A stretch of 64,000 nt of DNA from Thermoplasmata archaeon (lineage in GTDB: Archaea > Thermoplasmatota > Thermoplasmata > Halarchaeoplasmatales > Halarchaeoplasmataceae), in contig JBKHIX010000001.1 of assembly GCA_046538435.1 (NCBI GenBank), positions 184 to 64,183 of the forward strand, written 5' to 3'. Position 1 is the stretch's first letter. Every line of letters starts with the position of its first letter. This document shows positions 27,417 through 59,321 of the stretch, in pieces. A model generated the notes under the pieces. It did no database searches and had not been told where the DNA came from. It saw only the letters and a list, made by a program, of their open reading frames with translations. Both the position numbers and the translations under genes were made by a program.

Positions 27417-28206
27417 ACGGTTTTCTTCTGCGGCTCTTTCCTTTACTGTAGAAATAATATAGTAAGAAACCTGATACTGAAGCGATTATTATTACCGCTG
27501 CTATCCATCCAAGATTGCTGTCCCCTTCAACATAAAATGTCTTTTGTAGTAATCGTTCGTCTTTACTGAATCCTTCTTTATCATCAAGATTGTAATCCAC
27601 CCATATCTCTAGTTCATGTTCTCCTGAAGAATAGCCTTTTTTAGACCATTTCATAGTTAATGTTTTCCTTTCATCAGCCTCTAACGCATCTATTTTTGTT
27701 ATATTTTTTAGATCTCCATCAACGAACAAACCAACTTCAATATTGCTGATCTCAGTGTCAGTTGGATTCTGCACACTCACCGTTGTAGTTACTGGTTTTA
27801 TAGCATTTATTTCATAGTCATCTTCATTATATCTTGTTTCTCCGTCCTTTGCACAGTATGCTTTGAATGTTATCTTAGCATCACCTTCCTCTCGGACAGT
27901 AACTTTTACAGTAAAAACATTCGATTCTTCTGATTCCTGAGTCCTCTCATCTATCTTTACATCGATATTAGCATCAGTTTTGAGTGTCCAATTATCTGCC
28001 TCACTTCCAAATGATCCGCCTATCCTAACTCTGTAAGTGGCACTTTCATTAACAAAAACATCTTTCGGGCCTTTTTCTACAAAAATTCTAACCCCTGATT
28101 GAGATAAATCTTGAGCCTCAGTACTATAAATAGAAAGTGGTATCGTGAGCATCAATATAACCACGATAAAAATTGAGAGGTACCTAGTGGTCTTCATCGT
28201 ATCCAC
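27406..28206 (-). CDS. CARDB-domain surface protein with an N-terminal signal/TM and a C-terminal TM plus polybasic tail
   Basis: N-terminal hydrophobic segment, a CARDB-like region (SNIEVGLFVDGD...TLTMKWS...ELEIWVD), C-terminal IIIASVSGFLLYYFY + KGKSRRRKPWKK, three N-x-S/T sequons; overlaps the AglB stop by 13 nt. Confidence 0.5.
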   Translation of the reverse strand: MDTMKTTRYLSIFIVVILMLTIPLSIYSTEAQDLSQSGVRIFVEKGPKDVFVNESATYRVRIGGSFGSEADNWTLKTDANIDVKIDERTQESEESNVFTVKVTVREEGDAKITFKAYCAKDGETRYNEDDYEINAIKPVTTTVSVQNPTDTEISNIEVGLFVDGDLKNITKIDALEADERKTLTMKWSKKGYSSGEHELEIWVDYNLDDKEGFSKDERLLQKTFYVEGDSNLGWIAAVIIIASVSGFLLYYFYSKGKSRRRKPWKK

Positions 28207-31200
28207 CTCTTCTTTTTAAGTATGTAATATGCACCGACTGCCACTAATATCACTATCAATACCCACTGCCATGTTTTTAACGAAAATTCCTCTTCTTCAA
28301 GTCTTACTCCGCCATCTTTCATATCTATGGAACCAATCTGTGATAATTGTGGCATTTCCGTTTCATATTGTTCTGTAGAACTTTTTGTTTCATCACCTAC
28401 AGATGTTGCAGTTACTTCTATTTTTACATTCTTATTTGGACGTTCTCTGTTAGAAGTTAGTGAAATTTCTATAGATTTTTCCTCATGAGCATTTATCTTC
28501 TCTGTTATATTCACTACAGATGCATCCCAACCTAAGTTGCTCAGTTCTTTTTTATTTATAATGTTCATCGAATATCTATCTTCTCCATTACCTGTGTTGT
28601 TCAGATTGATGGTATACGTGATAATCCCATTACTGTATTTCTTGTTAGTAATCTCAGGTTTTAATTTGGTACCATATACTTGTTTAACCTCGATAGGTAG
28701 AACCTTTTCCAAGCTTTCATCTGAATTAGCTGAATCTATCCTTAATTTAACTGACTCGTGATCTACTGTTGCATTTTCATCTACTTTTACACTAATTTCT
28801 ACTGTTTTTGTTTCTTTTGGATTCAATGTAATATTTTCTTCTGAATATTTGATTTGCCAATTTGACGTCGAAGATAGTAAATAGGTATCTTTTGTGTTTC
28901 CTGTATTTTTGATTTGAACGTAATATCTTACTCTTTCACTCTGAGCTGCACTTTTCTTTTCTAAATCGTTCACAATTTCTAGACCATATTCTTTTACTTT
29001 ATTCAACCCTATATCTAAATCTCTACTAGTAGTAAATGTATAATCCTTATTAAACTTATATTCAGTCAAACCATATTGAGTATCTCTAGTAGTACTAGCC
29101 TTTAAAGTGTATTTTCCTTTTGGAACGACTGCTCTAAAAGTACCATCTTCTGATACTTCGAATGATTTACTGATCCCCTTACCCTCGAACTCAAGAGAAG
29201 CTGTTACTCTTTCTCCATCAATCGTTAATTTTCCATCGATTCGCACTGCGTCATTTAGATTGATATCCAGAGTCTTTTCCTCGCCCATCTTAAAGTTATC
29301 CAGATAAGAGTAGATATATTGTCCTTTCTTATGAGATACATATACCGTGTATGGGCCCTCAGCTAATCCTAGAGAATAAGCTCCGTCATCACCTGTTTTA
29401 ACAGACGTGGATAGTTTATCAGATATCAATGATATAAATTGTATCTCTACTTCGTCTATATATTGTCCATCGGCTTTCACATCACCGGTCAAAGTTGCAT
29501 TTATTAATTCTCTGTTAAGTTCTAGACTCGGTGATATCGGAGTAGAAATATCATATTCCTCATCATAATAATATCTTACATCCCTAATGGTTCCTTCAAC
29601 ATGCTCTTCAGTCTCATAGTCAATAATTATATTGTATTCGCCAGGAGTCAACGGTATGTTTATCTCTCCATCCTGGTTGCTTATCTCTGTTATTTCATAG
29701 CCAGAGAATTTATTTCTAAAGGTTACTGGAACATCGCCCTTTGTTTCTCCCTTGTAAATCACCTCGGGATTTACCATTACATTGTCATACAACGTGATAT
29801 TCAATTTAGTTGATCCATCGACTACTAATTTCGTCTGTTCAGAGATATCTTTGTCTCGGTTTATTGCTCTTATAGAGTATTCACCTTTTTCCAAATAAAC
29901 GATGTACTCACCTTGTCCAGTTATCTCTTTTTCCTGCGGCCCAACAAAGGTAACTTCAGCATCTACTTTTTCATTATTTTTATCTTTTAGAATACCAGTC
30001 ACTCTATATTCATACACCGGAGTCAAATCAAGATTTAAACTGTCATCACCTGGTGAAATATCAATTGATTTTGAGAGCTCATATTTTGCCTTACCATCAT
30101 CCAACAAGGTATCTATAATCACATTATACTTTCCAGGTTTTAAATCAGCAGTATATGACGTGCCATCAGCTTCTATTTGTTTTGTAATCGCGCCATCACT
30201 TTCTGCTTCAAACTTGATACCTATGTCATCAACATAAGTATTATCGAAAGTCAAATTACCTTTTACAGTAACATTATCAGCGGTTAGTGCAATATTAGAT
30301 TCAAATTCCTTTCCTGGCCTATATGTTTTGGTCACCGTTTCGAAGCCTTCTTTAGAGACCTCAACTTCTGTTTTAGAATCCGGCATCACTAAACTATAAC
30401 TTCCATCTCTTAGCGATGTAAATGTTGCTGTCTTATCACTAGATTCGATCTGTACATTTGCTCTGATTCCTTCACCTTCATCATATTCTCCGTCATTGTT
30501 CATATCTCGATAGATTCTACCTTCTACTAATTCACCTTCTTTGGCCAATAATGAAAGGTATCCAGAACTTTCAACAGTGATTTCATTTAAACTAAATTTC
30601 TTCTGTGCCGTAGTTTCCTTCCAACCATAAACACTGTAAGTACCTTTTGTAAGATCAATATCGAATACACCTGTATGATTACTGGTTACAACAGCTTCTT
30701 CAGAAGGATTGTTTTTGTTAACGAACAAAATGTTGAAATTGTTTTGTCTGAAACCTGCGGAATCCACATGACCTCTTACTCTATAACCCTTCTCGAACTC
30801 AGCTATATAAGTTTCATCCTCTGTGACTGTCACTGTTCCCATATGTACCTGATTTTCTGAACCCTTTTGATATTGACCATATATCCTGTAAGATAACGCT
30901 GGTACTTTGATAGTTGTTTGTCCATCTTCAGCGGTTGATACAGTCCTAGTATAACCGACTCCTTCTTTATCATATATTGATAAACTTTGATATCTAATCC
31001 TATTACCATCTTTGACTGTTTTCAACTTTAATTCATGAGCTTCTGAAATTGATATCTGCTTATCTATAGGAGAACCTGCTTTTATCTCAAAAGTCATCGG
31101 TCCTTTCTTTAAACAATAATTCTCATCTCTTACACTTAAATTGTATGTTCCTGGTACAACATTATCAAAGGTATAATTATCATCTTCTCCTGCTGTAAAG

Positions 31201-34200
31201 GTGGTCTCTTCGTACTTGTCATTATTAACATTCTCAAGCCTTAATGTAAATTCTTTTACCCCAATCTCTTCATCTACTGTGTAATTACCTTTGACTGTAC
31301 CAGTTGAAACAGAGATATCCTCTTGATTATCTGATCCTGGCTCTAATTTTACTCCTGTCAGTTCAGAACTACCAGGGGTATCAGCTTTCACTGTATATTG
31401 GCCGGGTACCAAGTTATTTATTTCGTAACTTCCATTTTCTGCACTAATGGTGTATTCTATTCCTGCTGTTTTGTTTTCTATTATCACATCAGATGAAACC
31501 AATGTATCATTATTTTTATTATATTCCTCATTACCGTCAGTATCGATATAAACTCTTCCAGATAAGTTAGCAGTATCTACGGTAAAATCATGTTTTTTAT
31601 TGTAATCCCAAACGCCATCTGAGTTTTTATCAACTTTTTCTCTCATGGCCTCTTCATCAGTAACCTCAAATTTTTCTTGACCTAGATTTATGGATTCTGT
31701 TTTGAGTAACTTACTGTTTGCAGCCTGATCACTATCTATTCCCCCATTAGTCACTACAACTGAATTGTTCCCTTCAGGAAGTATAACCTCATATCGTCCA
31801 TTTGAATCTGTTCTGGTAACATCATGTGGTGTGAATTCTTCATCTAAAACCGTCACGTTTGCATTAGGTATCGGCTGACTATCGTTTGTTTTCACTGTAC
31901 CCTTTAAGATCGCACCATCGTAATATTCTAAGAATACTACCCCTTGATTCATATAACTTCTAGCAGATCTATCTACTGTCCCTTTCTCCTCTTGTTGATA
32001 TTCTTTTGCCTTATCATATGATATGGCTCTCCAAGAATCGGTATGATTCTCATAATCTTTATAAGGATTATAATAGGCAGTTCTGTAAACCATGCTGAAG
32101 TGCTTCATTCCCCAACTTGGCATTGGGTTATATTGTTGTTGTTGTTGTTGTTGTAGTTGTTGTTGTTGACTACCCTCTAATTGGTCAATACCAGGTATTC
32201 CTTGGTCCAATCCAATTTCTTTACCAGAATAACCTGCCATCACACGATACATTGTCGTGTTATAGAACATTGGCTGGAAGTTTATATTGTAATCAACAAT
32301 CTGGACATTCTCTGGTACGTCTTCTCTTGAATCATATTCCATACCATCACTACCAACCAATTTGATACGATAGAAATCGACCGGTGATCTCTGTTCTCCA
32401 CCTTCGTCTATTCTATATCCTGCTAATTTAGCAGGTGCATAAAATATACCTGTATTTCTAGCGGATTTTGGGAATAATCTGGAATCGGCTGCGAGATATT
32501 TTATTCTTTTATCTAACTCTAAAGATACATCTCTATACAGTGAGGACGTTGTACCTACTCCTTCCTCCGAAAGCATAGCCATAGTATAAGCGTATTTAAC
32601 GTTCTTGGGATGGATATCGTCAGCTCTTGGATAATATCTCTCTGGATTGTTCAATACCTCTTCTTTGTATTTTGGCTCACCAAAATTCGTCATAACCTCT
32701 TCAAGCTTTTCTGTTTTAGCTTCTCCTATATGTTTTATCAATATTTCCTTAACATCCTCGTTAAATTCTCCTTCTTCTTGTATAGGAAGTTCCAACAATC
32801 TTACTGTCATTAAAGATATGACTTCGGATTCATTTTGAGCCATCAATATATTACCCGCCAACATGTATCCTACCTGGAAGTTATCAGCAACTGTTGGATG
32901 TTCTCCTTCTTCAATACATTCGAAACCATAGTCCCACCAACTGAGGAAAGCTGGCCGATCTTTAGGCTCTAAATCTTTATCCTTTTCACTGAACCAATCC
33001 CAAGCTGCCGGCCAATAATCAATAGGTTTATCCATTTGATAACCAAAGGCCCCTAGATACCACGAGTCCTGAGAACTTACATTATAATCTTCAGGTCTCA
33101 TAGCATTAGGCAACGAATTGTAAATCTGATCATTATATTCTTTTTTATCATCAGAAGGTATTCCAGAATCAAATGCATAAAGAACATTTGGCATCAACAC
33201 TAAGAATATCACAGTAAGAATCACTAAGATATGTCTGATCTTTATGCCTTCACGAAGCGCCCTAATATAGTTTCCTCTGAATTTTCTAAATCTAGTAGCT
33301 ATCGAACTGAAGTCTGCCTTATCTATGAGCAAGGCAATGATCCAACCAGCAGTCAAGGCAAATGCTGGTGAAGAATTGAAGATAAATCTAGCAGCAGATG
33401 TTGCCATGTATATTGCAAAAGCAGTCCAAACTAAAACAAACATGAACGGCTTTCTCCAATACTCTTTGAGATGCCAGATCGCAAGAGCTATTCCTAGGAA
33501 TGCCAAGAAGAAAGTTAGAATACCAAAAGATAAGACGATATTACTGAATTGAGGTGCCTGTGCCTCTGCTATAGTACTATACAGTTTATTCTGTATAAAG
33601 TAACCTCCTGCTGAAGAAATTGGTTCTAGTAAACTAGGTAATACGGTAGCGCCTAGACCAATATATATTGCTCCGCCTATTCCTAAAATTGAAAATACTA
33701 GTACCCAGGGAAGATCTCTGGTTATAGTGAAGAATATTCCTACAGCGAAAGCCACCAAGAACATTAATAGAGGTATATCGAACCATTTACCTGGTCCACT
33801 GCTGAGTAAACCAGTGAATATATTGCTTCCTATATTAGCACCTATATAATATGGGGCAGCCACAATAAACGCAACAGCCATAGTTACTCCAACACATGCA
33901 GTAATACCCAACGAATCTTTACCTTGAAATCTATCCACAATTAATTGGAATGCAAAGTAAACAAGTATAATAACCATCACATATGGATAACCTTTCCATG
34001 TCAGAGCTACCGTTGCTGTAGCCATCCCCGCTAAACCTGCATAAAGCAGTGATTTTTTGTTCTTGGCTGCAAATCTACTCAAACCGCTTTTGATCTTCGA
34101 CCATTTAGTCCAGTCTGTGACCCAATTTACCTCTTCAGATATATCTTTTAAAGATCTCATGAAGAAATAGAAAGCTGTTACCGCAAAGAACAGATATATT

Positions 34201-34754
34201 GCATCGTGGTCACCGTTTGTTATTACACTTCTTTGAAGGTGACCTGAACTAACTGCTAGTAAGAATACTGCAGCTATTCCTGCTTTTTTACCGAATGTAT
34301 CTCTGCCTATTAGGTAAACAGGGAATATCGTAAGAGCGCCCCATATACCTGTTGATAGGATGAATGAATATGAAATCGCCTGGCTCATATTTCCAACAAA
34401 TGGATATATAACGTAACCACCTAAAACAACTGACCAACCATAAATTGGGGGTCTTGGGTTACCTGCACCAAACGGATATTTACGTAAATTATCATATAAT
34501 AAATGCTGATGATTTTCTGCAATATAATTAATTATTCTCTCATAATAATAAGCGTCTGAACCTCCTGATAGAAGATACGGTGTTCCAAATTTTGTTGCTA
34601 GTTCAAATGCAAAGTAAACTCGTATGAACAGAGCAATAATGAAAACTCCTACCAAGCAGGTCAACGTTCCCCAGTTTTCTTCCCACCAACGCGTTTTGGA
34701 GGAAGATTGTTCCTTTTCTCTTGAAATTTTATCAAGCCATCTAAAGCTCATCAC
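28194..34754 (-). CDS. aglB: AglB/STT3 oligosaccharyltransferase fused to a ~1300-aa array of beta-sandwich repeats (CarboxypepD_reg-like, CARDB-like) and a C-terminal TM anchor
   Basis: The N-terminal ~870 aa carry the multi-TM STT3 domain with GGSDAYYYER and WWDYG (LSWWDYGFECIEEG) motifs. Then comes the polyQ QQQQLQQQQQQQ. Then at least 8 repeats of the GxYxV...NGxYxxxxLxPGxY type and two CARDB-like modules. The protein ends with the TM anchor WVLIVILVAVGAYYILKKKRWIR. Confidence 0.85.
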   Translation of the reverse strand: MMSFRWLDKISREKEQSSSKTRWWEENWGTLTCLVGVFIIALFIRVYFAFELATKFGTPYLLSGGSDAYYYERIINYIAENHQHLLYDNLRKYPFGAGNPRPPIYGWSVVLGGYVIYPFVGNMSQAISYSFILSTGIWGALTIFPVYLIGRDTFGKKAGIAAVFLLAVSSGHLQRSVITNGDHDAIYLFFAVTAFYFFMRSLKDISEEVNWVTDWTKWSKIKSGLSRFAAKNKKSLLYAGLAGMATATVALTWKGYPYVMVIILVYFAFQLIVDRFQGKDSLGITACVGVTMAVAFIVAAPYYIGANIGSNIFTGLLSSGPGKWFDIPLLMFLVAFAVGIFFTITRDLPWVLVFSILGIGGAIYIGLGATVLPSLLEPISSAGGYFIQNKLYSTIAEAQAPQFSNIVLSFGILTFFLAFLGIALAIWHLKEYWRKPFMFVLVWTAFAIYMATSAARFIFNSSPAFALTAGWIIALLIDKADFSSIATRFRKFRGNYIRALREGIKIRHILVILTVIFLVLMPNVLYAFDSGIPSDDKKEYNDQIYNSLPNAMRPEDYNVSSQDSWYLGAFGYQMDKPIDYWPAAWDWFSEKDKDLEPKDRPAFLSWWDYGFECIEEGEHPTVADNFQVGYMLAGNILMAQNESEVISLMTVRLLELPIQEEGEFNEDVKEILIKHIGEAKTEKLEEVMTNFGEPKYKEEVLNNPERYYPRADDIHPKNVKYAYTMAMLSEEGVGTTSSLYRDVSLELDKRIKYLAADSRLFPKSARNTGIFYAPAKLAGYRIDEGGEQRSPVDFYRIKLVGSDGMEYDSREDVPENVQIVDYNINFQPMFYNTTMYRVMAGYSGKEIGLDQGIPGIDQLEGSQQQQLQQQQQQQYNPMPSWGMKHFSMVYRTAYYNPYKDYENHTDSWRAISYDKAKEYQQEEKGTVDRSARSYMNQGVVFLEYYDGAILKGTVKTNDSQPIPNANVTVLDEEFTPHDVTRTDSNGRYEVILPEGNNSVVVTNGGIDSDQAANSKLLKTESINLGQEKFEVTDEEAMREKVDKNSDGVWDYNKKHDFTVDTANLSGRVYIDTDGNEEYNKNNDTLVSSDVIIENKTAGIEYTISAENGSYEINNLVPGQYTVKADTPGSSELTGVKLEPGSDNQEDISVSTGTVKGNYTVDEEIGVKEFTLRLENVNNDKYEETTFTAGEDDNYTFDNVVPGTYNLSVRDENYCLKKGPMTFEIKAGSPIDKQISISEAHELKLKTVKDGNRIRYQSLSIYDKEGVGYTRTVSTAEDGQTTIKVPALSYRIYGQYQKGSENQVHMGTVTVTEDETYIAEFEKGYRVRGHVDSAGFRQNNFNILFVNKNNPSEEAVVTSNHTGVFDIDLTKGTYSVYGWKETTAQKKFSLNEITVESSGYLSLLAKEGELVEGRIYRDMNNDGEYDEGEGIRANVQIESSDKTATFTSLRDGSYSLVMPDSKTEVEVSKEGFETVTKTYRPGKEFESNIALTADNVTVKGNLTFDNTYVDDIGIKFEAESDGAITKQIEADGTSYTADLKPGKYNVIIDTLLDDGKAKYELSKSIDISPGDDSLNLDLTPVYEYRVTGILKDKNNEKVDAEVTFVGPQEKEITGQGEYIVYLEKGEYSIRAINRDKDISEQTKLVVDGSTKLNITLYDNVMVNPEVIYKGETKGDVPVTFRNKFSGYEITEISNQDGEINIPLTPGEYNIIIDYETEEHVEGTIRDVRYYYDEEYDISTPISPSLELNRELINATLTGDVKADGQYIDEVEIQFISLISDKLSTSVKTGDDGAYSLGLAEGPYTVYVSHKKGQYIYSYLDNFKMGEEKTLDINLNDAVRIDGKLTIDGERVTASLEFEGKGISKSFEVSEDGTFRAVVPKGKYTLKASTTRDTQYGLTEYKFNKDYTFTTSRDLDIGLNKVKEYGLEIVNDLEKKSAAQSERVRYYVQIKNTGNTKDTYLLSSTSNWQIKYSEENITLNPKETKTVEISVKVDENATVDHESVKLRIDSANSDESLEKVLPIEVKQVYGTKLKPEITNKKYSNGIITYTINLNNTGNGEDRYSMNIINKKELSNLGWDASVVNITEKINAHEEKSIEISLTSNRERPNKNVKIEVTATSVGDETKSSTEQYETEMPQLSQIGSIDMKDGGVRLEEEEFSLKTWQWVLIVILVAVGAYYILKKKRWIR
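32134..32169. repeat. (TTG)n/(CAA)n trinucleotide microsatellite encoding the polyQ linker of AglB
   Basis: ttgttgttgttgttgttgttgtagttgttgttgttg read directly from the sequence. Confidence 0.9.
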
Positions 34755-36558: not shown

Positions 36559-36587
36559 CAGACCTGTCTGATGACCAGACTAAGATT
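36559..36587 (-). other. 3' half of the 23S rRNA bulge-helix-bulge processing stem
   Basis: Complementary to 39502-39530 with bulge(3)-helix(4)-bulge(3) geometry; see findings. Confidence 0.7.
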
Positions 36588-39501
<2,914 letters not shown>

Positions 39502-39964: not shown

Positions 39965-40798
39965 ATGAAAAAAATACCAACGGGAATAAGTGATCTAGAT
40001 TCTATTATTAAAGGTGGAATACCAGCAGGATCGGTCGTTCTTCTATTGAATGAGATAGGTGCAGGAGGGCTAGAATACCTCTACACAGCATCAGCTAAAT
40101 TATTGAGAGTTATTGATAGCCCTAAAGATATACACCTATTATTAGGAGATGAATGTAGACAATCTATCTTACCTCAAGAAGTACATTATGTAACATTTTC
40201 AAGGTCCATGGAGGACGTACTCGATGAAGTTAAAATCTCTTTTAATCAGGATTATTATGATGTCATAGAAGAAAATCTAAAAATAAAAGATTTTTCAGAA
40301 TCTTACTTCAAAAGAACTATGGTGCCACCAGGATGGACAGGTAAACGAGATAAAAAAAATATATTTTCAGATAACTCAAACTCTGATCTACTGGAAGATT
40401 TGGTAAATTTTCTAGAAGAAAATGCTGAAGACAATATGATTATAATCGATTCTTTAACAGATTTGCTTACAAATTCTTCAATAGATAACGAAAAACTAGT
40501 TACAATAATCAAAGGTATGAGAAGAGCTTCTAAACAATGGGGTGGCGTGATTTATCTATTATTATCTAAAGGCATCATCGAGAAAAGTACGGAATATTTA
40601 TTGATTGATAGTGTCGATGGTGTCTTGACATTCGAATGGTCAAAAAATAGAAGGACCTCTCAGAGACAGCGATATATGCTAGTCGACAAATTCATGAGTG
40701 TTTTACCACATCTTAAAAGAGAAAAGATAGCTAGATTTACAGCAGAGGTAACTGACTATGAGGGGTATACTGTAGTTAATTATGAAAAAATTAGGTGA
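39965..40798 (+). CDS. KaiC/RecA-superfamily paralog with a degenerate (inactive) Walker A
   Basis: GISDLDSIIKGGIPAGSVVLLLNEIGAGGLEY aligns to the KaiC-like N-terminus, but GxxGxGKT is replaced by GAGGLE. Confidence 0.5.
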   Translation: MKKIPTGISDLDSIIKGGIPAGSVVLLLNEIGAGGLEYLYTASAKLLRVIDSPKDIHLLLGDECRQSILPQEVHYVTFSRSMEDVLDEVKISFNQDYYDVIEENLKIKDFSESYFKRTMVPPGWTGKRDKKNIFSDNSNSDLLEDLVNFLEENAEDNMIIIDSLTDLLTNSSIDNEKLVTIIKGMRRASKQWGGVIYLLLSKGIIEKSTEYLLIDSVDGVLTFEWSKNRRTSQRQRYMLVDKFMSVLPHLKREKIARFTAEVTDYEGYTVVNYEKIR

Positions 40799-40803
40799 TA
40801 GAT

Positions 40804-41511
40804 ATGAAAGATAAAAATATAAAAAGGGTGAAAACAGGCATTGAAGGCCTAGATGAGATGCTAAATGGGGGCGTTCCAAAAGGTCACGTATTTACCGTTA
40901 TGGGAGCCTTTGGAACTGGTAAAACTACTTTTTCATTACAATATTTATGGAATGGTTTACAAAATGATGAATCAGGAATTTTCATAACATTAGAAGAAGA
41001 TAGAGATGCAATGATCGAGACAGGTTTGTCTTATGGCTGGGATTTTAGACCTTATATCGAAAATGATAAACTAGCGGTTGAAAAATTAAAACCTGCCGAT
41101 GCACAAGCTACAATATCAAAGATTCAAAGTGAACTACCTGCCTTTATCGATAATTTTGACGCAGAGAGAATAGCTATAGATTCTGTTTCTCTTCTTAACA
41201 TGATGTCAGATTCAAACAAGGAAAAAAGAGAAAGATTGTTCAGCCTATGCCAGATGATAAAAGATACAGGTGCTACAGCACTTTTTACTGCTGAAGTTAA
41301 AGACGATAACCCTAGAAGTTCTAGAGATGGGTTAATAGAGTATACAACAGATGGTGTTATTTTACTTAGATATAATCAAAAAGATATGCAGGATGTTCAA
41401 CTCAGTGTTCAGGTTATCAAGATGAGACGGATCGAGCATTCAAGAAAGATTAAACCTTATCTTATATCGGATAAAGGTATAGAAGTTCAGTCAGAAGGAG
41501 CTATTTTCTAA
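40804..41511 (+). CDS. KaiC-like RecA-superfamily ATPase
   Basis: GIEGLDEMLNGGVPKGHVFTVMGAFGTGKTTFSLQY Walker A and Walker B ...IAIDSVS; GTG at 40795 in the track, ATG at 40804. Confidence 0.75.
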   Translation: MKDKNIKRVKTGIEGLDEMLNGGVPKGHVFTVMGAFGTGKTTFSLQYLWNGLQNDESGIFITLEEDRDAMIETGLSYGWDFRPYIENDKLAVEKLKPADAQATISKIQSELPAFIDNFDAERIAIDSVSLLNMMSDSNKEKRERLFSLCQMIKDTGATALFTAEVKDDNPRSSRDGLIEYTTDGVILLRYNQKDMQDVQLSVQVIKMRRIEHSRKIKPYLISDKGIEVQSEGAIF

Positions 41512-41519
41512 GTGATAAT

Positions 41520-42542
41520 ATGGGTGTCAGGATAAAAGATATTATCCGTAGTAATGAGATAAAATTAAGTGATCTTGAAAATAAAATTATTGCTGTAGAT
41601 GCATACAATATAATATATCAATTCTTATCGAGCATCAGGCAGAGAGATGGATCACCATTAAAAGACTCCAAAGGTCGTATAACTTCACATCTTTCAGGCT
41701 TGTTGTACAGAAATGCCAATCTTATAGAGAATGGTATTAAGTTGGTATACGTTTTTGATGGTAAACCTGACATTATGAAAGAAGGAACCCTGGAAAAACG
41801 TAAAGAAAGAAAAAGGAAGGCTGAAAAAGAGTATGAAGAAGCTCTTGAAAAAGGAGATCTAAAAACTGCTAGAACGAAAGCTCAACAAACATCAAGAATG
41901 GATGCGGAGATAGAAGGCAGCGGTAAAGAATTACTCACACTATTAGGTATACCCTGGATACAAGCTCCTGCAGAAGGTGAAAGCCAAGCTGTTCATATGG
42001 TAAAAAAAGGTGATGCTTGGGGTGTAGGCAGTCAAGATTACGATTCTCTGTTATTAGGCGCACCCCGTTTGATTAAGAATCTAACAATCACCGGAAGAAG
42101 AAAGCTGCCAGGAAGGAACGAATATAAAATGATAAATCCCGAGTTGATCATTTTAGAGGATGTTTTAAATGAGGTTGAAATTACCAGAGAACAACTAATC
42201 GATATAGGCATATTGTGTGGTACGGATTATAATGATGGTGTAAAAGGTATAGGGCCCAAAAGAGGACTGAAGTATGTTAAAAAATACGGTGATCTTGAAA
42301 ATGTATTGAAAGAAAAAGACAAAGAAGTCAATAACTACGAAAGAATAAAAGAACTTTTTTTAAATCCCAAAATTACCGAAGATTATTCTATAAAATTCAG
42401 AAAAATGGATGTGGATGGAATAAAAAATTTCTTATGCGAAAAACATGAATTCTCTGAATCGAGGGTCCAGAGTGCTTTAGATAAGATCAAAGAGGGAAGA
42501 GATAAAGAAAAACAAACGAGTTTAAGCGCTTTTGGGGACTAA
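41520..42542 (+). CDS. fen: flap endonuclease 1
   Basis: XPG-N (IAVDAYNIIYQFL), XPG-I (YVFDGKPDIMKE ... GDAWGVGSQDYDSLLLG) and a C-terminal PIP-like tail. Confidence 0.9.
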   Translation: MGVRIKDIIRSNEIKLSDLENKIIAVDAYNIIYQFLSSIRQRDGSPLKDSKGRITSHLSGLLYRNANLIENGIKLVYVFDGKPDIMKEGTLEKRKERKRKAEKEYEEALEKGDLKTARTKAQQTSRMDAEIEGSGKELLTLLGIPWIQAPAEGESQAVHMVKKGDAWGVGSQDYDSLLLGAPRLIKNLTITGRRKLPGRNEYKMINPELIILEDVLNEVEITREQLIDIGILCGTDYNDGVKGIGPKRGLKYVKKYGDLENVLKEKDKEVNNYERIKELFLNPKITEDYSIKFRKMDVDGIKNFLCEKHEFSESRVQSALDKIKEGRDKEKQTSLSAFGD

Positions 42543-45500
42543 CAAAACTCGTCTAAACTTGGTGTGGAAACTTTATCATTTTGGAATAAAGATTCTATCT
42601 GTTCTTCCAGCTGCTTAACTCTCTGGTAAAGATAATCAGGTACATCATACTTTTCTACCATCTCCAATGAATGGTTAAGATACTTTTTAACGCTCCCTTC
42701 ATGTATAGTGAGAGTGAGATTGCCTCCACAATCACACTCTCCACTCAAAGGTATTCTCCTGTATTTCGTATTACATTTTGTACATCTTATTGTTTGAACA
42801 CCAAATTTATTGAAATTACCGATGAGGTCAGGGATGAAGTGGTCACCTATTACTCTGCTGACAACATCAGCTGTATCAACTGCTCTTATTAGGTCAGCCA
42901 CTTTTATCTGGGCATTCATCTTATCAGTCATCTTTCCCAATCGAGTATACTTACTCATTGTTGGTCCTTCAGATATATCAGCAGTATCATGAGTATATCC
43001 AAATCCCTCGTATTGACTTTCCGTCTCTAACCTATCCTCTGCGAGCTCCATAATCTCAGAAACTTCCTTAGGATCAGGATAATCAACAGTTCGTTCATAG
43101 AATTCTAACGGATACTCCCAAATTGTATCTACATTATGAGCTTCACTGTCTATCTCAGAAGGATCTATTCTGGTTGTTAAAACCAGAGGGGCATCCATTA
43201 GACCCCCACGCTTTTGAGGTAAGAATTCTTCTGAAAAATTTAGTAGTCCATCTAGGAGAAGCATTATGCAGTCCTCATCTCCGTCACAATTCCTTCTTTT
43301 AGCTGCGTGGAAGTATGGGTGTGCATAACCAGCTCTACCTTTATGGAATCCGATCAACCTACCGAGAACACCTCCCGAAGTATGTGGAGCCAATCCAACT
43401 ATCAGCTCACCAATCATATCTTCTTTTCTTTCTGCATCATAATATGAATTTAGGCCATAGTATTTCTCTAAAAGATCATCAATAAATTTTGCAACTTTTA
43501 CGATATACTGTCCTGCGCTATTGGATGCGATAAAATCCTGGACCTTGAGTTCTAACATTTGATCAGGATCTTTTAGTTCCTCACCATGGATGTCCTTTTT
43601 ATATCCTAATTCCCTAGCTCTTTCAACCGATAATCCTATCTCGCTGGGTTTAAAATGGGTCACGGGTAGATCTGTCATATCATATCTTGTCGTACCATCC
43701 TTAAATACGTAAATCCCATACTTTGCTCTTAAAATTCCTTTCTCCAACGCCTCAGGTGTCTTTGTCTTGGTCATCAACCCTTTTACACCCTTGATTTTCT
43801 GGACATTTCCACCTTCCCCTAAATTAGATAAGGCCTGTCGGAAAATATTCTTCACAGGTATTTTCTGTTCTTTTGGTTCATCTATTATCTCACATCTACC
43901 ATCACAAGAACATCTCACTGTTGCACTTGTCCTCCCGCACTCTTTACATCTTCTAGCGCTTACATCAACTTCAATAACACCCTCTTCCACAGCTTTTCTA
44001 ACCAGTCTCTGTGATCCTCCCGCGCTACCTACAGGGAAAAGTGTATGGACCGGGGGGCTCATCTTTCTTTCTTTTGCTTTCTCTGGTCTAGCCATCCTTG
44101 AGCCTATGGAAGTCGGCCCCTTACTTCTGATTGGGACTCCAGCTAACTCAGATACATAATTAATAGGGTCTTCTTCACTACTCTCGTTGATTTTTTCTGA
44201 CGATTCTAAGTCTAAACCTAGAGTAAACGATAAAGATCGATAATCTTTAACTACAATTTTCCCATCCTCTAAAGTATGTGGAATACCGATCTGTTCCATT
44301 AATTCTTTGATTTTTCTTTTTTTGTCTATCTTTAGAGCATTTTCAATTTTTCCTTCCTTCGATATCCAATCCCTCAATTCTTTTATTTCATCCACATCAA
44401 CATAATCCCAAAAATAGATAAATCTTGGATGTAAAGGATACCCCTTTTCTTTTGACAATTCAACCGCCTTTTTATCATCTAATTTACTAGCTGTTATATC
44501 CTCATCTATTTCTTGCTTCCACCATTCATGACAGTAGGCACCTGGAACTAAAGGATGATTGTTTTCAACGAACTCGCCATATGGTATGAGGATCTCTCCA
44601 ACATCTATTATCTCTTTAACTTTTAGATTCAACTCCTTGGCCTCTTCTGCGGTATCAACTCTAGTTACCGTCCCATCATGAAGTAAAACAGTCGGACCTT
44701 CAATCGAGTCACAAGGAGTCACTGCACCTGCTTTCCCTGGTCTTTCGATCTTGACCTGAGTACCTAAGGCTAGGAATTCTTCTGTTAAGTACATAGTAGC
44801 TGGGTTTATAGCGATAGATGCTAATCCCCCTGTTCTAGCCCTACCATATCTTAATCTAAATCCTCCTTTTCTACTAGGGTGTCCAAAAACAGGTCTTCCT
44901 GCTATGGTTTCTTTTATATACTTATAATTTGGTTTGACTCCTTTACTTCCTTCTTCTTCCTCTTCTTCATCAGATTTGCTCTTACCAGACATGTGTTTAT
45001 CGATATATTCATCTAAAAAATCCCATCCGATACCTAATTTTTCAACGTGCTTTTTTAGTTTTTGTGCTTTAAGACACATACCTTCAGCTATTACAAGACA
45101 AGCACCGCCTCTCACTCTATTTGTATCAACTCTTGGTAAATCTCTGTTACCAGATACTTCTGTATCAGTACCTTCACCACTTATACCTACAGGACAACCA
45201 TCTACTATCAAAGATATCTCTTCATTTGAAGGTGTGTATTGAAGTCCTAATGATTTCTTATAGAGAGGGATCTCTTCCTTGAATCTCTGTATTTCATCTT
45301 TACTCGCTTTAAATTCACCTATACCCAACTCCCGTCGAACCACATCAGCTATCAGTACACTCATGGCCTGACCGGTTCCTCCTGCTGAACGGATAGGGCC
45401 TGCAAATGATAATTCAACATAGTCACTTCCGTCAAAATTCTCCCGAATCTTTACTCCGCCGATACCTTCCAACGGAGCAACAAGAATTCCTTCAGTTAAT

Positions 45501-45799
45501 ACTGCTAAACCGATCCTTACTGCATCCTCCAATCTTTCACCAACACTACCCTCATCCCTAGATGCTACTTCTTTCGCAATTCGGATTGATACCTCTTCCC
45601 TATCGTATTCTTCACTAAGCTCTCGAATTTTTTCAGCAGTGTTTTTAACTCCAGTCAGTTCCTGTGCCCTCAAAGCTAAGTCCTCAGCTCGTGGGATTTC
45701 AACTTCAGTCGTAGGGTCATATCCCATATTCCTCGCTTTTTCAGCTAACTGATAACATCCCTCTGCTTTGTCTTCCAGACTTTGGAAATATTGTTTCAT
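42539..45799 (-). CDS. polC: DNA polymerase II (PolD) large subunit DP2
   Basis: 1086 aa; internal CKECGRTSATVRCSCDGRC and C-terminal CTKCNTKYRRIPLSGECDCGG zinc fingers; conserved DP2 catalytic-core pattern. Confidence 0.8.
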   Translation of the reverse strand: MKQYFQSLEDKAEGCYQLAEKARNMGYDPTTEVEIPRAEDLALRAQELTGVKNTAEKIRELSEEYDREEVSIRIAKEVASRDEGSVGERLEDAVRIGLAVLTEGILVAPLEGIGGVKIRENFDGSDYVELSFAGPIRSAGGTGQAMSVLIADVVRRELGIGEFKASKDEIQRFKEEIPLYKKSLGLQYTPSNEEISLIVDGCPVGISGEGTDTEVSGNRDLPRVDTNRVRGGACLVIAEGMCLKAQKLKKHVEKLGIGWDFLDEYIDKHMSGKSKSDEEEEEEGSKGVKPNYKYIKETIAGRPVFGHPSRKGGFRLRYGRARTGGLASIAINPATMYLTEEFLALGTQVKIERPGKAGAVTPCDSIEGPTVLLHDGTVTRVDTAEEAKELNLKVKEIIDVGEILIPYGEFVENNHPLVPGAYCHEWWKQEIDEDITASKLDDKKAVELSKEKGYPLHPRFIYFWDYVDVDEIKELRDWISKEGKIENALKIDKKRKIKELMEQIGIPHTLEDGKIVVKDYRSLSFTLGLDLESSEKINESSEEDPINYVSELAGVPIRSKGPTSIGSRMARPEKAKERKMSPPVHTLFPVGSAGGSQRLVRKAVEEGVIEVDVSARRCKECGRTSATVRCSCDGRCEIIDEPKEQKIPVKNIFRQALSNLGEGGNVQKIKGVKGLMTKTKTPEALEKGILRAKYGIYVFKDGTTRYDMTDLPVTHFKPSEIGLSVERARELGYKKDIHGEELKDPDQMLELKVQDFIASNSAGQYIVKVAKFIDDLLEKYYGLNSYYDAERKEDMIGELIVGLAPHTSGGVLGRLIGFHKGRAGYAHPYFHAAKRRNCDGDEDCIMLLLDGLLNFSEEFLPQKRGGLMDAPLVLTTRIDPSEIDSEAHNVDTIWEYPLEFYERTVDYPDPKEVSEIMELAEDRLETESQYEGFGYTHDTADISEGPTMSKYTRLGKMTDKMNAQIKVADLIRAVDTADVVSRVIGDHFIPDLIGNFNKFGVQTIRCTKCNTKYRRIPLSGECDCGGNLTLTIHEGSVKKYLNHSLEMVEKYDVPDYLYQRVKQLEEQIESLFQNDKVSTPSLDEFC

Positions 45800-48165: not shown

Positions 48166-48354
48166 GTGAAAATTATGGAAATGACGGGAGGATGCCATAT
48201 CTGCGGTAAAGTTGCAACTCAATCCTGTAAAATATGTGGTATGATTACCTGTGATAAACATCTTAGAAACGGAATTTGTCTAGAATGCAGAACAGGTAGG
48301 AAAATAGATAGAGAGAAAGAAGAAAAAAGTCTTCAAGAAAACGTTTTTACCTAA
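48166..48354 (+). CDS. small C4 zinc-ribbon protein
   Basis: CHICGK...CKICG...CDKH...CLEC; 62 aa; overlaps the ValRS stop. Confidence 0.4.
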   Translation: MKIMEMTGGCHICGKVATQSCKICGMITCDKHLRNGICLECRTGRKIDREKEEKSLQENVFT

Positions 48355-51085: not shown

Positions 51086-51661
51086 ATGAAACTAACCGAC
51101 AAAGAAATCAAAAATATAAAAGAGATGCGTAAAGACGGGTTATCTCTAAATCAGATCGCTGATAAGTTAGAAAAAGATGAAAACGAATTTAAAAATTATA
51201 TAATCAAAGAGAAGTTGTTGAGTAAAGAATTATATGAACTATCACTGCAGTCAAAAGCCTTTAAGATGTTCGACGAAGGAAAAGATGCTGTTGATCTTGT
51301 TAAAGAGGGTTACTGTACAGCAGCTGAAGCCGGAGTTTTAATGGAAAAATATTCCGATCTTTCTGGAGCTGAAGACCAATCCGAACAAATCAAAGACATG
51401 CACAGAAAAATATCAACACAGGTAGGTCTTTTAGGGAGCAGAGTTGCCCGATTAGAGGTGAAAATCATGAACTCGTTATTATTGCCAAAAACCTTTGAAT
51501 GTCCTTCCTGTGGTAACAAAGGTAAGTACGAAGTGGGTGTTGTTTGTAATGCATGTGGACAAGTAGCAACATACATACCAGATGTGATAAAAGACAGTTT
51601 ATCTGGGAAGATTGTAGACACTTCTGTTTACGTGGGCAATAAGGAAGATGAAGAAGACTAA
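51086..51661 (+). CDS. HTH plus C-terminal C4 zinc-ribbon protein (possible transcription factor)
   Basis: N-terminal IKEMRKDGLSLNQIADKL HTH-like; C-terminal CPSCGNKGKYEVGVVCNACG. Confidence 0.35.
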   Translation: MKLTDKEIKNIKEMRKDGLSLNQIADKLEKDENEFKNYIIKEKLLSKELYELSLQSKAFKMFDEGKDAVDLVKEGYCTAAEAGVLMEKYSDLSGAEDQSEQIKDMHRKISTQVGLLGSRVARLEVKIMNSLLLPKTFECPSCGNKGKYEVGVVCNACGQVATYIPDVIKDSLSGKIVDTSVYVGNKEDEED

Positions 51662-52878
51662 CTAACATAAGAGATGGTATCCATCTCTCTTTCCAAAATG
51701 CTTATTCGTTTTTCATCTAAAGCATTTGGATTTACTATTACTAAAAATATACTTTTAGTTTCAGAAACGATATCCACCATATGACGGATAAATTTAATCG
51801 ATGCTTCAAAATTCACGTTACTTATAAGATATTCCAATCCATCCAATAATATTAAAGAATCTTCTTTTATCTTCTTTTCTAATACCCAACTCAATCTCTC
51901 TAAGTTGGGCGATATAATATCGTATATCTCGCTTTCCTTATCTGTTAACCATTTAACCTCAGCTTCTTTTAAATCAAATTCTTCTTCTATCCGTTTGGGA
52001 TTAAGCCTAGAGATTATGAACTTGTGAAGGTCCTTTTCTATTTTCTCGAATAGCTCAAATACTATATCAGCACTTTGCTCTTTGATAAGATAACTTCTGC
52101 TTTCTAAAACATCTAACTTTAACTCTCTATTTTCAACCTCTTTATCTATATATTGTTCTAATGTTTTTCTCACATTATCTAAAGTTACCTTCTCATCTAA
52201 AAGATCGGAATAAGCTGATATCCTAGTTAAAGCCCCCTCGATGAATCTTACGTTCTTTTTGATGTTTTTAGCTATGAAATTCAACACATCTGGTGGTGTA
52301 TCTATACTAAACTGCTTTGATTTTTCTTTGATTATCTCTTTTCTGCTTTCAAACGTGGGTGGTAATATATCAACCACCAGGCCAGATTTAAATATTGATG
52401 CTAACCTTTCCTCAACCTCTGTTATTTTTTCAGGTGAGCGGTCACTGGAAATCACTATCTGACCGCTTCCATTTTGAATTTCGTTAAATATGTGAAAAAG
52501 AGAATGTTGGGCTTCAGGTTTTTCAGTTATAAACTGAATATCGTCTAATAATAGAGTATCGAATTCAGAGTATTTTTCTTTGAATTTTGCTAATTCATCC
52601 TGCTCTAAATACTTATTAAAATCAGTAACTAATTTAGAAGTCGTGATGTATTTTATTTGTCTATCTGGGAATCTTTTAGATAAAGCTCTCCCAATTGCTT
52701 TCATCAGATGGGTTTTACCCAACCCAGATTCACCTTTGATAAATAATGGATTGTAACTTCTATCGGGATTTTTTGAAACAGCCACAGCAGCTGCACATGC
52801 AAATCGATTATTTGGACCAACTATAAAATTTTCAAAACTATATCTGTTGGGAAACTCATCTTCAATATCTTTTGACAT
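51658..52878 (-). CDS. DnaA-type AAA+ ATPase (DnaA domain III homolog) with a non-DnaA C-terminal DUF835-like domain
   Basis: FENFIVGPNNRFACAAA, NPLFIKGESGLGKTHLMKAIG, LLLDDIQFITEKPEAQHSLFHIFNEIQNGSGQIVISSDRSPEKI and VRFIEGALTRISAYS all align with bacterial DnaA/Hda domain III. The C-terminal 150 aa (…LLDGLEYLISNVNFEASIKFIRHMVD…) lack DnaA domain IV. Confidence 0.7.
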   Translation of the reverse strand: MSKDIEDEFPNRYSFENFIVGPNNRFACAAAVAVSKNPDRSYNPLFIKGESGLGKTHLMKAIGRALSKRFPDRQIKYITTSKLVTDFNKYLEQDELAKFKEKYSEFDTLLLDDIQFITEKPEAQHSLFHIFNEIQNGSGQIVISSDRSPEKITEVEERLASIFKSGLVVDILPPTFESRKEIIKEKSKQFSIDTPPDVLNFIAKNIKKNVRFIEGALTRISAYSDLLDEKVTLDNVRKTLEQYIDKEVENRELKLDVLESRSYLIKEQSADIVFELFEKIEKDLHKFIISRLNPKRIEEEFDLKEAEVKWLTDKESEIYDIISPNLERLSWVLEKKIKEDSLILLDGLEYLISNVNFEASIKFIRHMVDIVSETKSIFLVIVNPNALDEKRISILEREMDTISYVS

Positions 52879-52892
52879 TTGTTTTGTTTCAT

Positions 52893-53300
52893 CTATGATT
52901 TTTTACCTATTATATTGAGTGTTTTTTTGTCATTCTCTTTGGAATACTCTTCATAAACAGTTTCCTTTTCTTTACCAGGTATTTTTCCTTCTAATTCCGA
53001 AATCAATTTATCCACATCGACCTTTGTATGAATACTTATTTTCAACTCAGACCTCTGATCTAAGGCTTGAACATTTTGTAAAGATTCTAAGTCCGTTAAT
53101 TTTCCCGAAGGTGTATCTAACTGAGAAGTCCTAGGTATTCCATTTTTTATTATTACTAGTCCTTCATATTCATCGGGTATTTCCACCATGATGTAACCAT
53201 TAAATGAATGGGTTTTTAATTTGGTTACCAAAATTTGGAGCTTACCAGAACCTTCGACTTCTTTTATTTTTATTCCTTCAGGGATATTATTTGGTGACAA
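52893..53300 (-). CDS. hypothetical protein (135 aa), first gene of the operon with the DnaA-like ATPase
   Basis: Beta-rich N-terminus and a charged C-terminus; no family recognised. Confidence 0.35.
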   Translation of the reverse strand: MSPNNIPEGIKIKEVEGSGKLQILVTKLKTHSFNGYIMVEIPDEYEGLVIIKNGIPRTSQLDTPSGKLTDLESLQNVQALDQRSELKISIHTKVDVDKLISELEGKIPGKEKETVYEEYSKENDKKTLNIIGKKS

Positions 53301-53367
53301 GGTATTACTTAATTTGTCACCATGATAAATATATTTTCGCTAAAAAAGCAAAAAAAACTTATCCTTT

Positions 53368-53991
53368 GTGTCTGATTCCTTAATGATGAAAAGTCTGTTG
53401 ACCCGGTGTCCTTACTGTGGAGCACACTTTTATAAAAATACACCTGAAAACGATATTTCATATGTAAATATAATATGTCCTTACTGCAATTACCAATATA
53501 AAGACTCTATAGATGAAGAAAGAATTAAGAAACATGATTTTTACTGGGAGATATATTCTGGTCTCTATCCCCCAATAAAATCCGAAATACATAAAAAATC
53601 AAGATTAACAATTTCTGGGGTATTACTACTTTTAACATTACCATTTTTCATCTACGGTCTCTCACAAATATTTTTCCAAGGTGCTTTATCAGGTCTTTCT
53701 GTGGTGGAAACTAACACCATATATGGGGTATGGTTAGCGGGATTGATTTTTCTTCTTTTCGTTATAGCTGGTATAATTAGTGCATTGAAGCGTTATTCAT
53801 TCGTGATTTCCTTATCTGGAATTATCTTTGCTCTACTGAGTTCAGTCCTCTGGCTCTACATCTACCAAAGACTAGATCAACACATGTTTGACAATTTTTA
53901 TCAACTCCTAATGTTTGGTCCTCAAATCCTATCCCTCATATCTTTAACATTAATTATTAAGAACAGAAAATCGTTCAAACTCGGTTATTGA
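53368..53991 (+). CDS. membrane protein with an N-terminal C4 zinc ribbon and 4 TM helices
   Basis: CPYCGAHFYK...ICPYCNYQY followed by four hydrophobic helices. Confidence 0.4.
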   Translation: MSDSLMMKSLLTRCPYCGAHFYKNTPENDISYVNIICPYCNYQYKDSIDEERIKKHDFYWEIYSGLYPPIKSEIHKKSRLTISGVLLLLTLPFFIYGLSQIFFQGALSGLSVVETNTIYGVWLAGLIFLLFVIAGIISALKRYSFVISLSGIIFALLSSVLWLYIYQRLDQHMFDNFYQLLMFGPQILSLISLTLIIKNRKSFKLGY

Positions 53992-58952: not shown

Positions 58953-59321
58953 GTGGTTAAAATGTCTCCTGCTAACTTAATTGAAATGTTATTAGAGGAT
59001 ATCAAAGAGAATCCAGAAATCAAAAATGTAACTCTTGTTTCTAGAAGTGGTATGCATATAGCTGGTGAGGTACCAAAAAATTCCCACCGTGAGACATTCG
59101 TAGCGATGTCTGCTATATTACTTGGATCAGCAGAAACTGCTACGTCTGAATTGAAAGATGAATTATCGTATGTTCTCGTGGAATTAAAGAATTCCCGTAT
59201 CTTGATTTTGAACAGCGGGCCTTCAGCGATTCTTGTTACAAGGCTAAATAGAGAAAGTGATATTGATGAAATTATCAATTACCTTGAAAATCCTATCCAG
59301 GACATTCAAGATTCGCTATAA
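58953..59321 (+). CDS. Roadblock/LC7 (MglB-like) domain protein
   Basis: VTLVSRSGMHIAG...ETFVAMSAILLGSAETATSEL...VLVELKNSRILILNSGPSAILV matches the Roadblock/LC7 fold pattern. Confidence 0.7.
   Translation: MVKMSPANLIEMLLEDIKENPEIKNVTLVSRSGMHIAGEVPKNSHRETFVAMSAILLGSAETATSELKDELSYVLVELKNSRILILNSGPSAILVTRLNRESDIDEIINYLENPIQDIQDSL

Follow-up and report, generated by a model that had tools for sequence, protein, structure and literature searches.

A DnaA-type AAA+ module in a Thermoplasmata archaeon belongs to a conserved three-domain protein family and lies in a split, probably inactivated copy

Introduction

What is a DnaA-type AAA+ module, regarded as a hallmark of bacteria, doing in the chromosome of an archaeon? 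The question is raised by a locus (51658-53300, minus strand) in a stretch of 64,000 nucleotides from a Thermoplasmata archaeon of the order Halarchaeoplasmatales (NCBI assembly GCA_046538435.1, contig JBKHIX010000001.1, positions 184 to 64,183), called the window from here on. A previous sequence-only reading described an ATPase with a domain of bacterial DnaA type, thought to be built from horizontally acquired parts and to be a regulatory or defence module or the remnant of an integrated replicon. Our analysis leads to a different picture. The region is a single gene, and it belongs to a conserved family of ATPases with three domains that is specific to Thermoplasmatota. The intact protein would be a nucleotide-controlled switch or scaffold, and the copy in this genome is probably inactivated or altered. 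We consider this account, taken as a whole, slightly better than an even bet.

A DnaA-type AAA+ core

The open reading frame (ORF) of 406 amino acids (aa) at 51658-52878 on the minus strand carries an AAA+ core of the DnaA domain III type. Bac_DnaA (PF00308) matched residues 11-170 in Pfam with an E value of 3.8e-58, covering positions 3-162 of the 162 in the model, and the 196.7 bits obtained, against a gathering cut-off of 23, make the protein a member of the family. The complete module (domain IIIa plus the lid) extends over residues 11-245 (52144-52848, minus strand). When the PDB sequences were searched, the best match was domain III of Bacillus subtilis DnaA (8bv3 and 8btg, with an E value of 2.4e-59 for 8bv3), aligned without gaps over 231 residues at 42% identity. 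Because the alignment is gap-free, the helical insert specific of initiators is kept. Further down appeared the DnaA of Thermotoga maritima (1e-55) and Aquifex (2.5e-38), Hda (about 3e-7) and IstB (about 1e-4), while structures of Orc1/Cdc6 gave no match at E <= 1e-3.

The NCBIfam models ranked in the same way. The DnaA equivalog TIGR00362 reached 298.2 bits, below its cut-off of 343.9 and restricted to positions 102-348 of 437. Hda (TIGR03420) stayed at 94.7 bits (cut-off 194.8), IstB (IS21_help_AAA) at 56.9 bits (cut-off 200) and DnaC at 22 bits (E 1e-4, cut-off 357). The Pfam IstB_IS21 match (33 bits) coincides with the much stronger one of Bac_DnaA, and Orc1/Cdc6 was found neither in Pfam at E <= 1 nor among the best 25 of the 28 NCBIfam matches. 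The core is thus far closer to DnaA than to Hda, and closer to Hda than to IstB, with Orc1/Cdc6 unmatched, and the assignment to DnaA domain III made from the sequence alone stands.

All the motifs quoted at that time are also present, namely YSFENFIVGPNN, GLGKTHL, LLLDDIQF, IVISSDRSPEKI and NVRFIEGAL, as well as the pattern LLDGLEYL...FIRHMVD. Conservation was assessed in an alignment of 32 full-length members of the family, between 34 and 95% identical to the window protein, where three conserved modules are separated by variable linkers. Walker A (GxGKTHL), Walker B (LLLDD), sensor I (SDRxP), the arginine of box VII and that of sensor II are either invariant or present in at least 90% of the sequences. 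In the window the corresponding positions, all on the minus strand, are 52711-52734 (Walker A), 52540-52554 (Walker B), 52438-52449 (sensor I), 52390-52407 (box VII) and 52222-52236 (sensor II). The B-motif that follows Walker B is partly kept, and reads EKPEAQ in the subfamily of the window and GKERTQ in some members of a second subfamily. We take this basic motif to be the equivalent of K243/R245 of Escherichia coli DnaA, R245 being presumably the arginine that binds single-stranded DNA (ssDNA), and GKERTQ to be the ssDNA-contact motif of Aquifex DnaA. The arginine is not conserved in the subfamily of the window.

The rest of a typical initiator was not detected. Domain IV (Bac_DnaA_C, PF08299), already reported as missing, gave no match at E <= 1 in the window ORF, where a DUF835 domain occupies the C-terminus, and none at E <= 0.1 in the relatives P0002, P0009 and P0031. 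There is no DnaA domain I, and the N-terminus of the family is instead a PATAN-like domain.

One gene split by a frameshift

The four ORFs originally described (51086-51661, 51658-52878, 52893-53300 and 53368-53991) all exist. Two features ascribed to the ATPase, namely that it had only about 20 residues in front of the AAA+ core and that it was translationally coupled to an independent partner of 135 aa, proved to have the same origin in a frameshift. Almost all the homologues of the 406-aa ORF are single proteins of 537-555 aa, and their first 135 residues or so correspond to the upstream ORF 52893-53300. The supposed partner is therefore the own N-terminal domain of the gene, detached by the deletion of one nucleotide, and the ancestral gene, coding for a PATAN-like/DnaA AAA+/DUF835 ATPase, covers 51658-53300 on the minus strand.

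The clearest comparison is provided by contig L089, in which an intact orthologue of 547 aa (P0002, 95% identical) is found in identical gene order. The alignment of both DNAs, GGTAAAGAAATC in L089 versus GGTAAA-AAATC in the window, places the missing nucleotide in a run of six A (52899-52904, minus strand) that is one base short. The frameshift site (52893-52904) includes the resulting premature TAG at 52893-52895, after which the reading frame continues in the -1 frame, the next ATG (52878) being a native internal methionine. The two ORFs lie in different frames, 14 nucleotides apart.

An indel located in a homopolymer run could be a sequencing or assembly error, in which case the gene would be intact in the organism. 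The split form is also present, however, in another NCBI record of a metagenome-assembled genome (MAG) (P0122/P0001) and in an independent Logan assembly of the run SRR21542050 (L091), which has the same junction and differs in two other bases. The frameshift is therefore real in the population rather than a single assembly error. In addition, the deletion is accompanied by substitutions at invariant sites (see below), and altogether we consider an artefact very improbable. The two gene calls of 135 and 406 aa would be better annotated as one disrupted gene.

State of the window copy

Three residues of the window protein depart from positions that are otherwise nearly or completely invariant. 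One of them is Ile162 (codon 52393-52395, minus strand), which replaces the arginine finger of box VII (SRF to SIF), a position with arginine in 31 of the 32 family members. The other two are the change of G70 to D in the N-terminal domain (53091-53093, minus strand) and of T to I in the DUF835 domain (51916-51918, minus strand), where all 32 relatives have G and T respectively. The three residues are intact in P0002, and the replacement of the arginine finger is found in L091 too. When the window was compared with L089, the ratio of nonsynonymous to synonymous substitution rates (dN/dS) was 0.65 for the N-terminal part and 0.10 for the C-terminal part, the five neighbouring genes ranging from 0.05 to 0.11.

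These data suggest that the copy of the window has most likely been inactivated recently or has changed its function. The call as a pseudogene is based on the frameshift and the three changes at invariant sites, not on the rate of evolution. Actually, a relative-rate count gave 17 versus 16 lineage-specific changes, that is, no acceleration of the window copy, from which it follows that any inactivation has to be recent. The absence of a rate excess and the normal dN/dS of the C-terminal part count against inactivation.

The same observations can be read as a split that is still functional, either with the PATAN-like part (135 aa) and the remaining 406 aa as two subunits, or with a -1 slip on the A6 run restoring some full-length protein. 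In the first variant the 406-aa part would reinitiate at the native internal methionine, 14 nucleotides past the stop. Both ORFs are still open, the frameshift is found in the population in two assemblies, the shift required is precisely -1 on AAA AAA T, and the dN/dS of 0.10 in the C-terminal part and the lack of overall acceleration speak for this reading too. The substitutions at positions invariant in 31-32 of the 32 relatives, including the arginine finger, are difficult to reconcile with this idea, and so is the dN/dS of 0.65 in the N-terminal part. Besides, the internal ATG is not preceded by a Shine-Dalgarno-like sequence, the A6 run makes an imperfect slippery site (the codon in the P site would have to re-pair on TAA), and all the other lineages have kept one ORF. 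We think that a functional split is possible but rather unlikely, and that recent inactivation or alteration describes this copy better.

The domains at both ends

The tail of the protein had been tentatively recognized as DUF835-like, and this was borne out by the Pfam match to PF05763 over residues 270-399 of the 406-aa ORF (51682-52071, minus strand), with an E value of 4.2e-23 and 82.1 bits (gathering cut-off 33.1). In the intact orthologue P0002 the score was 89.8 bits. The domain has the RecA/KaiC core fold. A Walker A P-loop could not be found, as there is no GK[ST] in residues 251-406 and none among the conserved columns of the alignment; the tail is therefore an inactivated KaiC-like domain ('iKaiC'). 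In archaeal response regulators DUF835 is found as an output domain, and Galperin et al. (2018) read it as an inactivated KaiC that serves as signalling output (PMC5847659).

The N-terminal domain is more elusive. Residues 1 to about 105 of the ORF 52893-53300 (52986-53300, minus strand) appear to form a divergent alpha/beta domain similar to PATAN/DUF4388. The profile of this domain matched 253 representatives, and it reached proteins annotated as DUF4388 or DUF2226 at E values of about 1e-13 to 1e-6. Among the 63 shorter matches that were scanned, 38 carry DUF4388 (best E value 3.2e-16) and 10 carry DUF2226, and in P0246 and P0264 our profile and the Pfam model match overlapping stretches. 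The similarity is thus transitive, at the level of profiles. Two points speak against the assignment: none of 17 N-terminal domain sequences matched DUF4388 (PF14332) directly in Pfam, even at E <= 10, and there is no solved PATAN structure for comparison. To our knowledge, no fusion of a PATAN domain to an AAA+ module has been described before. PATAN is a protein-binding, membrane-localising output of PatA-type regulators and binds the pilus motor ATPase (bioRxiv 10.1101/2021.06.11.447907).

An old resident of the archaeal chromosome

The archaeal nature of the surroundings, pointed out from the beginning, is clear from an archaeal large subunit (LSU) rRNA gene (36586-39500), the DP2 subunit of PolD and FEN1, all of them within the window. 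Identical proteins in the databases come under names of Thermoplasmatota or Thermoplasmata MAGs. The gene order around the ATPase is common to the window and its relatives, down to about 50% identity, and includes genes for a Na/Ca exchanger, TraB-like, VCA0040-like, PHP, DUF447 and Roadblock/LC7 proteins, an aminoacyl-tRNA synthetase, IF-2B and PolD DP2. The guanine plus cytosine (GC) content at the locus is ordinary. There is no turn of the GC skew and no dnaN context, and the DnaA boxes (TTATCCACA, allowing up to one mismatch) numbered 29 against 21.8 +/- 4.3 expected, with neither cluster nor enrichment. A check of boxes and skew had been proposed, and in both respects the result was negative.

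To place the AAA+ cores we used a neighbour-joining tree, midpoint-rooted and without support values, from which we take only whether the archaeal sequences are nested within a bacterial phylum. Its bacterial set came from the dnaA loci retrieved in a contig scan with the family alignment and DnaA-motif patterns, a scan that returned almost exclusively bacterial dnaA loci (L001 and L002 were the sole archaeal ones). The 78 bona fide bacterial DnaA proteins formed one clade, outside of which were the archaeal cores and a group of Gemmatimonadota proteins with tandem DnaA modules. Because the archaeal cores fall outside the bacterial clade and not within one phylum, any transfer must have been ancient.

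The next-best matches to the archaeal core were these tandem proteins of Gemmatimonadota (P0038-P0120, for example P0052), of about 640 aa and labelled as 'DnaA/Hda family', which have two Bac_DnaA modules and no domain IV. They are 38-41% identical to the archaeal core and group by themselves, separate from the bona fide DnaA proteins.

The bacterial type of the AAA+ core would be accounted for if bacterial DnaA parts had been acquired horizontally and the locus were a mobile element, a defence module or the remnant of a plasmid. This reading could also invoke a weak match to mad8 in PADLOC (E 2.5e-4) and a TnpB-like ORF located 31 kb away. The mad8 match falls in a generic P-loop region, and the remaining PADLOC result, PDC-M14A (E 1.7e-3), in the zinc ribbon; both are weak and generic, so that PADLOC offers nothing meaningful. 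Neither integrase, repeats nor replicon genes are adjacent to the locus, its GC content is normal, the gene order is kept among housekeeping genes in relatives that are 50-95% identical, and the cores are not nested within the DnaA of any bacterial phylum. This possibility, suggested previously, is largely refuted and we regard it as extremely improbable; the locus is neither a recently acquired island nor a replicon remnant or a defence module. The DnaA-type module has long been established in this archaeal lineage, where it is inherited vertically.

Partner genes and subfamilies

We examined nine distinct loci of the subfamily to which the window belongs (subfamily 1), namely the window itself, L089/L091, L081/L082, L083/L084, L085, L088, L092 and L093. 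A small gene is found directly downstream of the ATPase gene in every one of them, and where compared it codes for a zinc-ribbon protein, which answers positively whether the helix-turn-helix (HTH) and zinc-ribbon gene is a conserved neighbour. This partner (51086-51661 in the window, plus strand) has an optional N-terminal HTH, a helical core with the conserved pattern SKAFxMFxEG...TQxGLLGSR, a CxxC...CxxC ribbon and an acidic tail, and the convergent overlap of 4 bp with the ATPase gene noticed before in the window is real. The orientation varies, being convergent in some loci and co-directional with overlap in L085 and L092. In L088 the partner is co-directional and two Ras/Roc GTPase genes flank it. 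The N-terminus resembles HTH_38 in some lineages, and the HTH is absent in L085, L088 and L092. The partner family is small, with only 31 clusters among 5.8 billion proteins; those with a name are all from Thermoplasmatota (one is labelled Candidatus Saliniplasma, order Halarchaeoplasmatales), and the clusters lie on contigs that have the same lengths as the ATPase-bearing ones.

The partner gene has an unusual pattern of divergence. Between the window and L089 its synonymous divergence (dS) was 0.75, with a nucleotide identity of 0.88, compared to 0.13-0.26 in the neighbouring genes. The dN/dS was very low (0.045), indicating strong purifying selection. The high dS may reflect recombination with a more divergent lineage.

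At the other side, a divergently transcribed gene of about 200 aa precedes the ATPase in all the subfamily-1 loci. In the window (53368-53991, plus strand; relatives start at the methionine in 53386) it codes for a protein that carries a zinc ribbon at its N-terminus and for which about four transmembrane (TM) segments are predicted. The zinc-ribbon/4-TM neighbour of the sequence-only reading is indeed a conserved divergent gene, with orthologues in the same position that are 29-47% identical in L081-L085 and L088 and about 96% identical in L089. In L091-L093 the gene of about 200 aa in this position is unannotated and was matched by size and place alone.

Members of subfamily 2 (L086, L087, L001 and L002), which is more distant, are larger, 640-700 aa, with an inserted linker. 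Their neighbour is a convergent gene for a protein of 366-499 aa with multiple zinc ribbons and a helical region, and three of the loci have an orthologous KaiC-like ATPase gene near the ATPase.

About 6 kb from the ATPase gene of the window there is a Roadblock/LC7 gene (58953-59321), in a block syntenic with L081 and L083 and found in some loci only. Together with the Ras/Roc genes of L088 it may link the family to signalling by small GTPases, although the context is sporadic and weak.

A switch or a DNA-acting factor?

How would such a protein work? We propose that the AAA+ module behaves like DnaA domain III: it would bind ATP, and its copies would assemble head to tail by means of the arginine in box VII. 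The domains at both ends, PATAN-like and iKaiC, would then dock this ATP-dependent assembly onto the membrane, the zinc-ribbon proteins and perhaps small GTPases or ATPases of the KaiC type. The outcome would be a nucleotide-controlled switch or scaffold rather than a replication initiator that binds DnaA boxes. We favour this mechanism because the end domains are protein-docking outputs elsewhere (in PATAN-REC and REC-DUF835 proteins) and there is no DNA-recognition domain. The gene context argues for it as well, with a zinc-ribbon partner that is obligatory, a membrane protein that also has a zinc ribbon and, in some cases, neighbours coding for KaiC-like ATPases or small GTPases.

Several considerations weigh against the proposal. 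It rests on domain analogy, and we have found no description in the literature of this family, of the fusion or of its partners, so that the term uncharacterised, applied to it from the start, was right. All the characterised AAA+ proteins of the initiator clade that we know of (DnaA, DnaC, IstB and Orc/Cdc6) act on DNA, and an identity of 42-47% to DnaA points to constraints similar to those on DnaA itself. A zinc ribbon and an HTH are among the features of the partner, the KERTQ B-motif persists in some members of subfamily 2, and the associations with GTPase and KaiC genes are sporadic. The mechanistic step by itself, an ATP-controlled oligomeric switch or scaffold, is accordingly tentative and in our judgement falls somewhat short of an even chance.

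These same points lead to the alternative of a DNA-acting, initiator-like factor. Here a DnaA-type filament would engage ssDNA or origin-proximal duplex, the zinc-ribbon/HTH partner would supply sequence recognition in trans, replacing domain IV, and the PATAN and iKaiC domains and the membrane protein would regulate or tether the filament. The role could be in replication control, in restart or in the organisation of chromosome and membrane, beside Orc1/Cdc6. The gap-free similarity to DnaA domain III at 42% identity, including the initiator-specific insert, the conservation of the catalytic and oligomerisation motifs and the GKERTQ retained in subfamily-2 members would all fit. Nevertheless, the ATPase itself has no DNA-binding domain, and the B-motif arginine is lost in the subfamily of the window (EKPEAQ). 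The zinc ribbon of the partner, to which some lineages add an N-terminus resembling HTH_38, would favour the alternative, but the HTH is missing in L085, L088 and L092. As for the location, three loci have PolD DP2 and FEN1 at a distance of 6-10 kb, and others have genes for gyrase or helicase in the vicinity, yet these replication genes are neither adjacent nor universal, and the locus has neither enrichment of DnaA boxes nor a turn in GC skew.

Giant relatives in which PATAN is joined to a coiled coil, a DnaA AAA+ module and zinc ribbons would also be in line with an action on DNA, except that no homology of their zinc-ribbon part to the partner could be shown beyond the CxxC knuckle. We did consider this C-terminus as a partner homologue, that is, as a 'Rosetta stone' for the interaction, and discarded it, the hhalign comparison yielding only a CxxC match of nine residues. 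The giants are P0332 (1420 aa, L090:8001-12263), located in a housekeeping chromosomal context, and P0276 (1348 aa), both with a PATAN-like N-terminal domain, a long coiled coil, DnaA AAA+ and one or more C-terminal zinc ribbons. In P0274 (996 aa) the PATAN-like domain and the coiled coil are combined with double zinc ribbons, and it gave no DnaA match.

On balance a DNA-acting factor appears unlikely, although it is the main rival of the switch. In its boldest form, Thermoplasmatota would have a second initiator-like machine, derived from DnaA and working next to Orc1/Cdc6. An ATP-dependent filament, tethered to the membrane and to signalling proteins by its PATAN and iKaiC domains, would act on chromosomal DNA together with the zinc-ribbon/HTH partner and in this way govern the initiation of replication or the position of the chromosome. 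This form is quite speculative and we give it little credit. The switch or scaffold is the mechanism that we retain, with the reservations expressed above.

Comparison with known systems

With bacterial DnaA the family shares a full-length match to AAA+ and lid and the conservation of Walker A and B, sensor I, the box VII arginine and sensor II. It differs in the lack of domain I, of domain IV with its DnaA-box HTH, of a DnaA-box cluster and of a dnaN context, in the presence of PATAN-like and iKaiC domains, in scoring below the cut-off of TIGR00362 and in being archaeal. Hda itself has about 230 aa, binds the clamp through its N-terminus and carries no further domain. Like Hda/HdaA, the family has a DnaA-clade AAA+ without a DNA-binding domain, and some members match the Hda_lid model; but the window protein is far nearer to DnaA (298 versus 95 bits), and the intact protein has about 547 aa and two additional domains.

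The tail is a bona fide PF05763 domain with RecA/KaiC fold, as in the REC-DUF835 regulators and KaiC-like ATPases (ArlH/FlaH, PH0284). Unlike in the former, it is fused here to a DnaA-type AAA+ and not to REC or TM domains, and the lack of the P-loop that ArlH and KaiC possess means that it cannot be an ATPase itself. The N-terminal domain is related to the PatA-type PATAN proteins (PixE/PixG) insofar as its profile reaches DUF4388 proteins on the stretches matched by the Pfam model, but it is very divergent and has no direct Pfam match. Finally, the Gemmatimonadota tandem-DnaA proteins and the giants (P0052, P0276 and P0332) have likewise a DnaA-type AAA+ without domain IV in a non-initiator architecture, and P0276 and P0332 share in addition the PATAN-like N-terminal domain. 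Where the family has DUF835, their C-terminus holds a second AAA+ module or zinc ribbons, and they are also uncharacterised.

In the databases the family is labelled 'DnaA ATPase domain-containing' or 'DUF835 domain-containing'. It is an uncharacterised, lineage-specific architecture built on a DnaA AAA+ core, and it is not DnaA, Hda, IstB/DnaC or Orc1/Cdc6.

Other features of the window

A pair of KaiC-like genes is located beside FEN1 and the large subunit of PolD (39965-41511, 41520-42542 and 42539-45799). The one that codes for 277 aa is degenerate, and the product of the other, with 238 aa, matches the KaiC family in full. The same KaiC-like/FEN1/PolD block is found in L088 with 70-72% identity. 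The TnpB-like ORF at 19652-20902 (416 aa) has OrfB_IS605 and Cas12f-like TNB domains and corresponds to a transposon-associated nuclease of TnpB type. The archaeal 23S rRNA gene (36586-39500) stands alone, with no 16S or 5S match within the 64-kb window, and the sole tRNA match (11217-11311), of 95 nucleotides, suggests a tRNA with an intron. The largest gene is an ORF of 2186 aa (28194-34754, minus strand). Between the genes of the aminoacyl-tRNA synthetase and an aminotransferase there is a small ORF of 62 aa (48166-48354) with several cysteines, including CxxC pairs; L089 has a called gene of 59 aa at the corresponding position.

Significance

An archaeal phylum stably inherits a DnaA-type module that lacks a DNA-recognition domain and is placed between two docking domains of the signalling type. 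If the protein is a nucleotide switch, the ATPase of an initiator would have been put to a new use, as a scaffold for signalling. If instead it still works on DNA, archaea would control replication or the chromosome at a level that has gone unrecognised. In both cases, the family and its partner genes make a well-defined and experimentally tractable unit.

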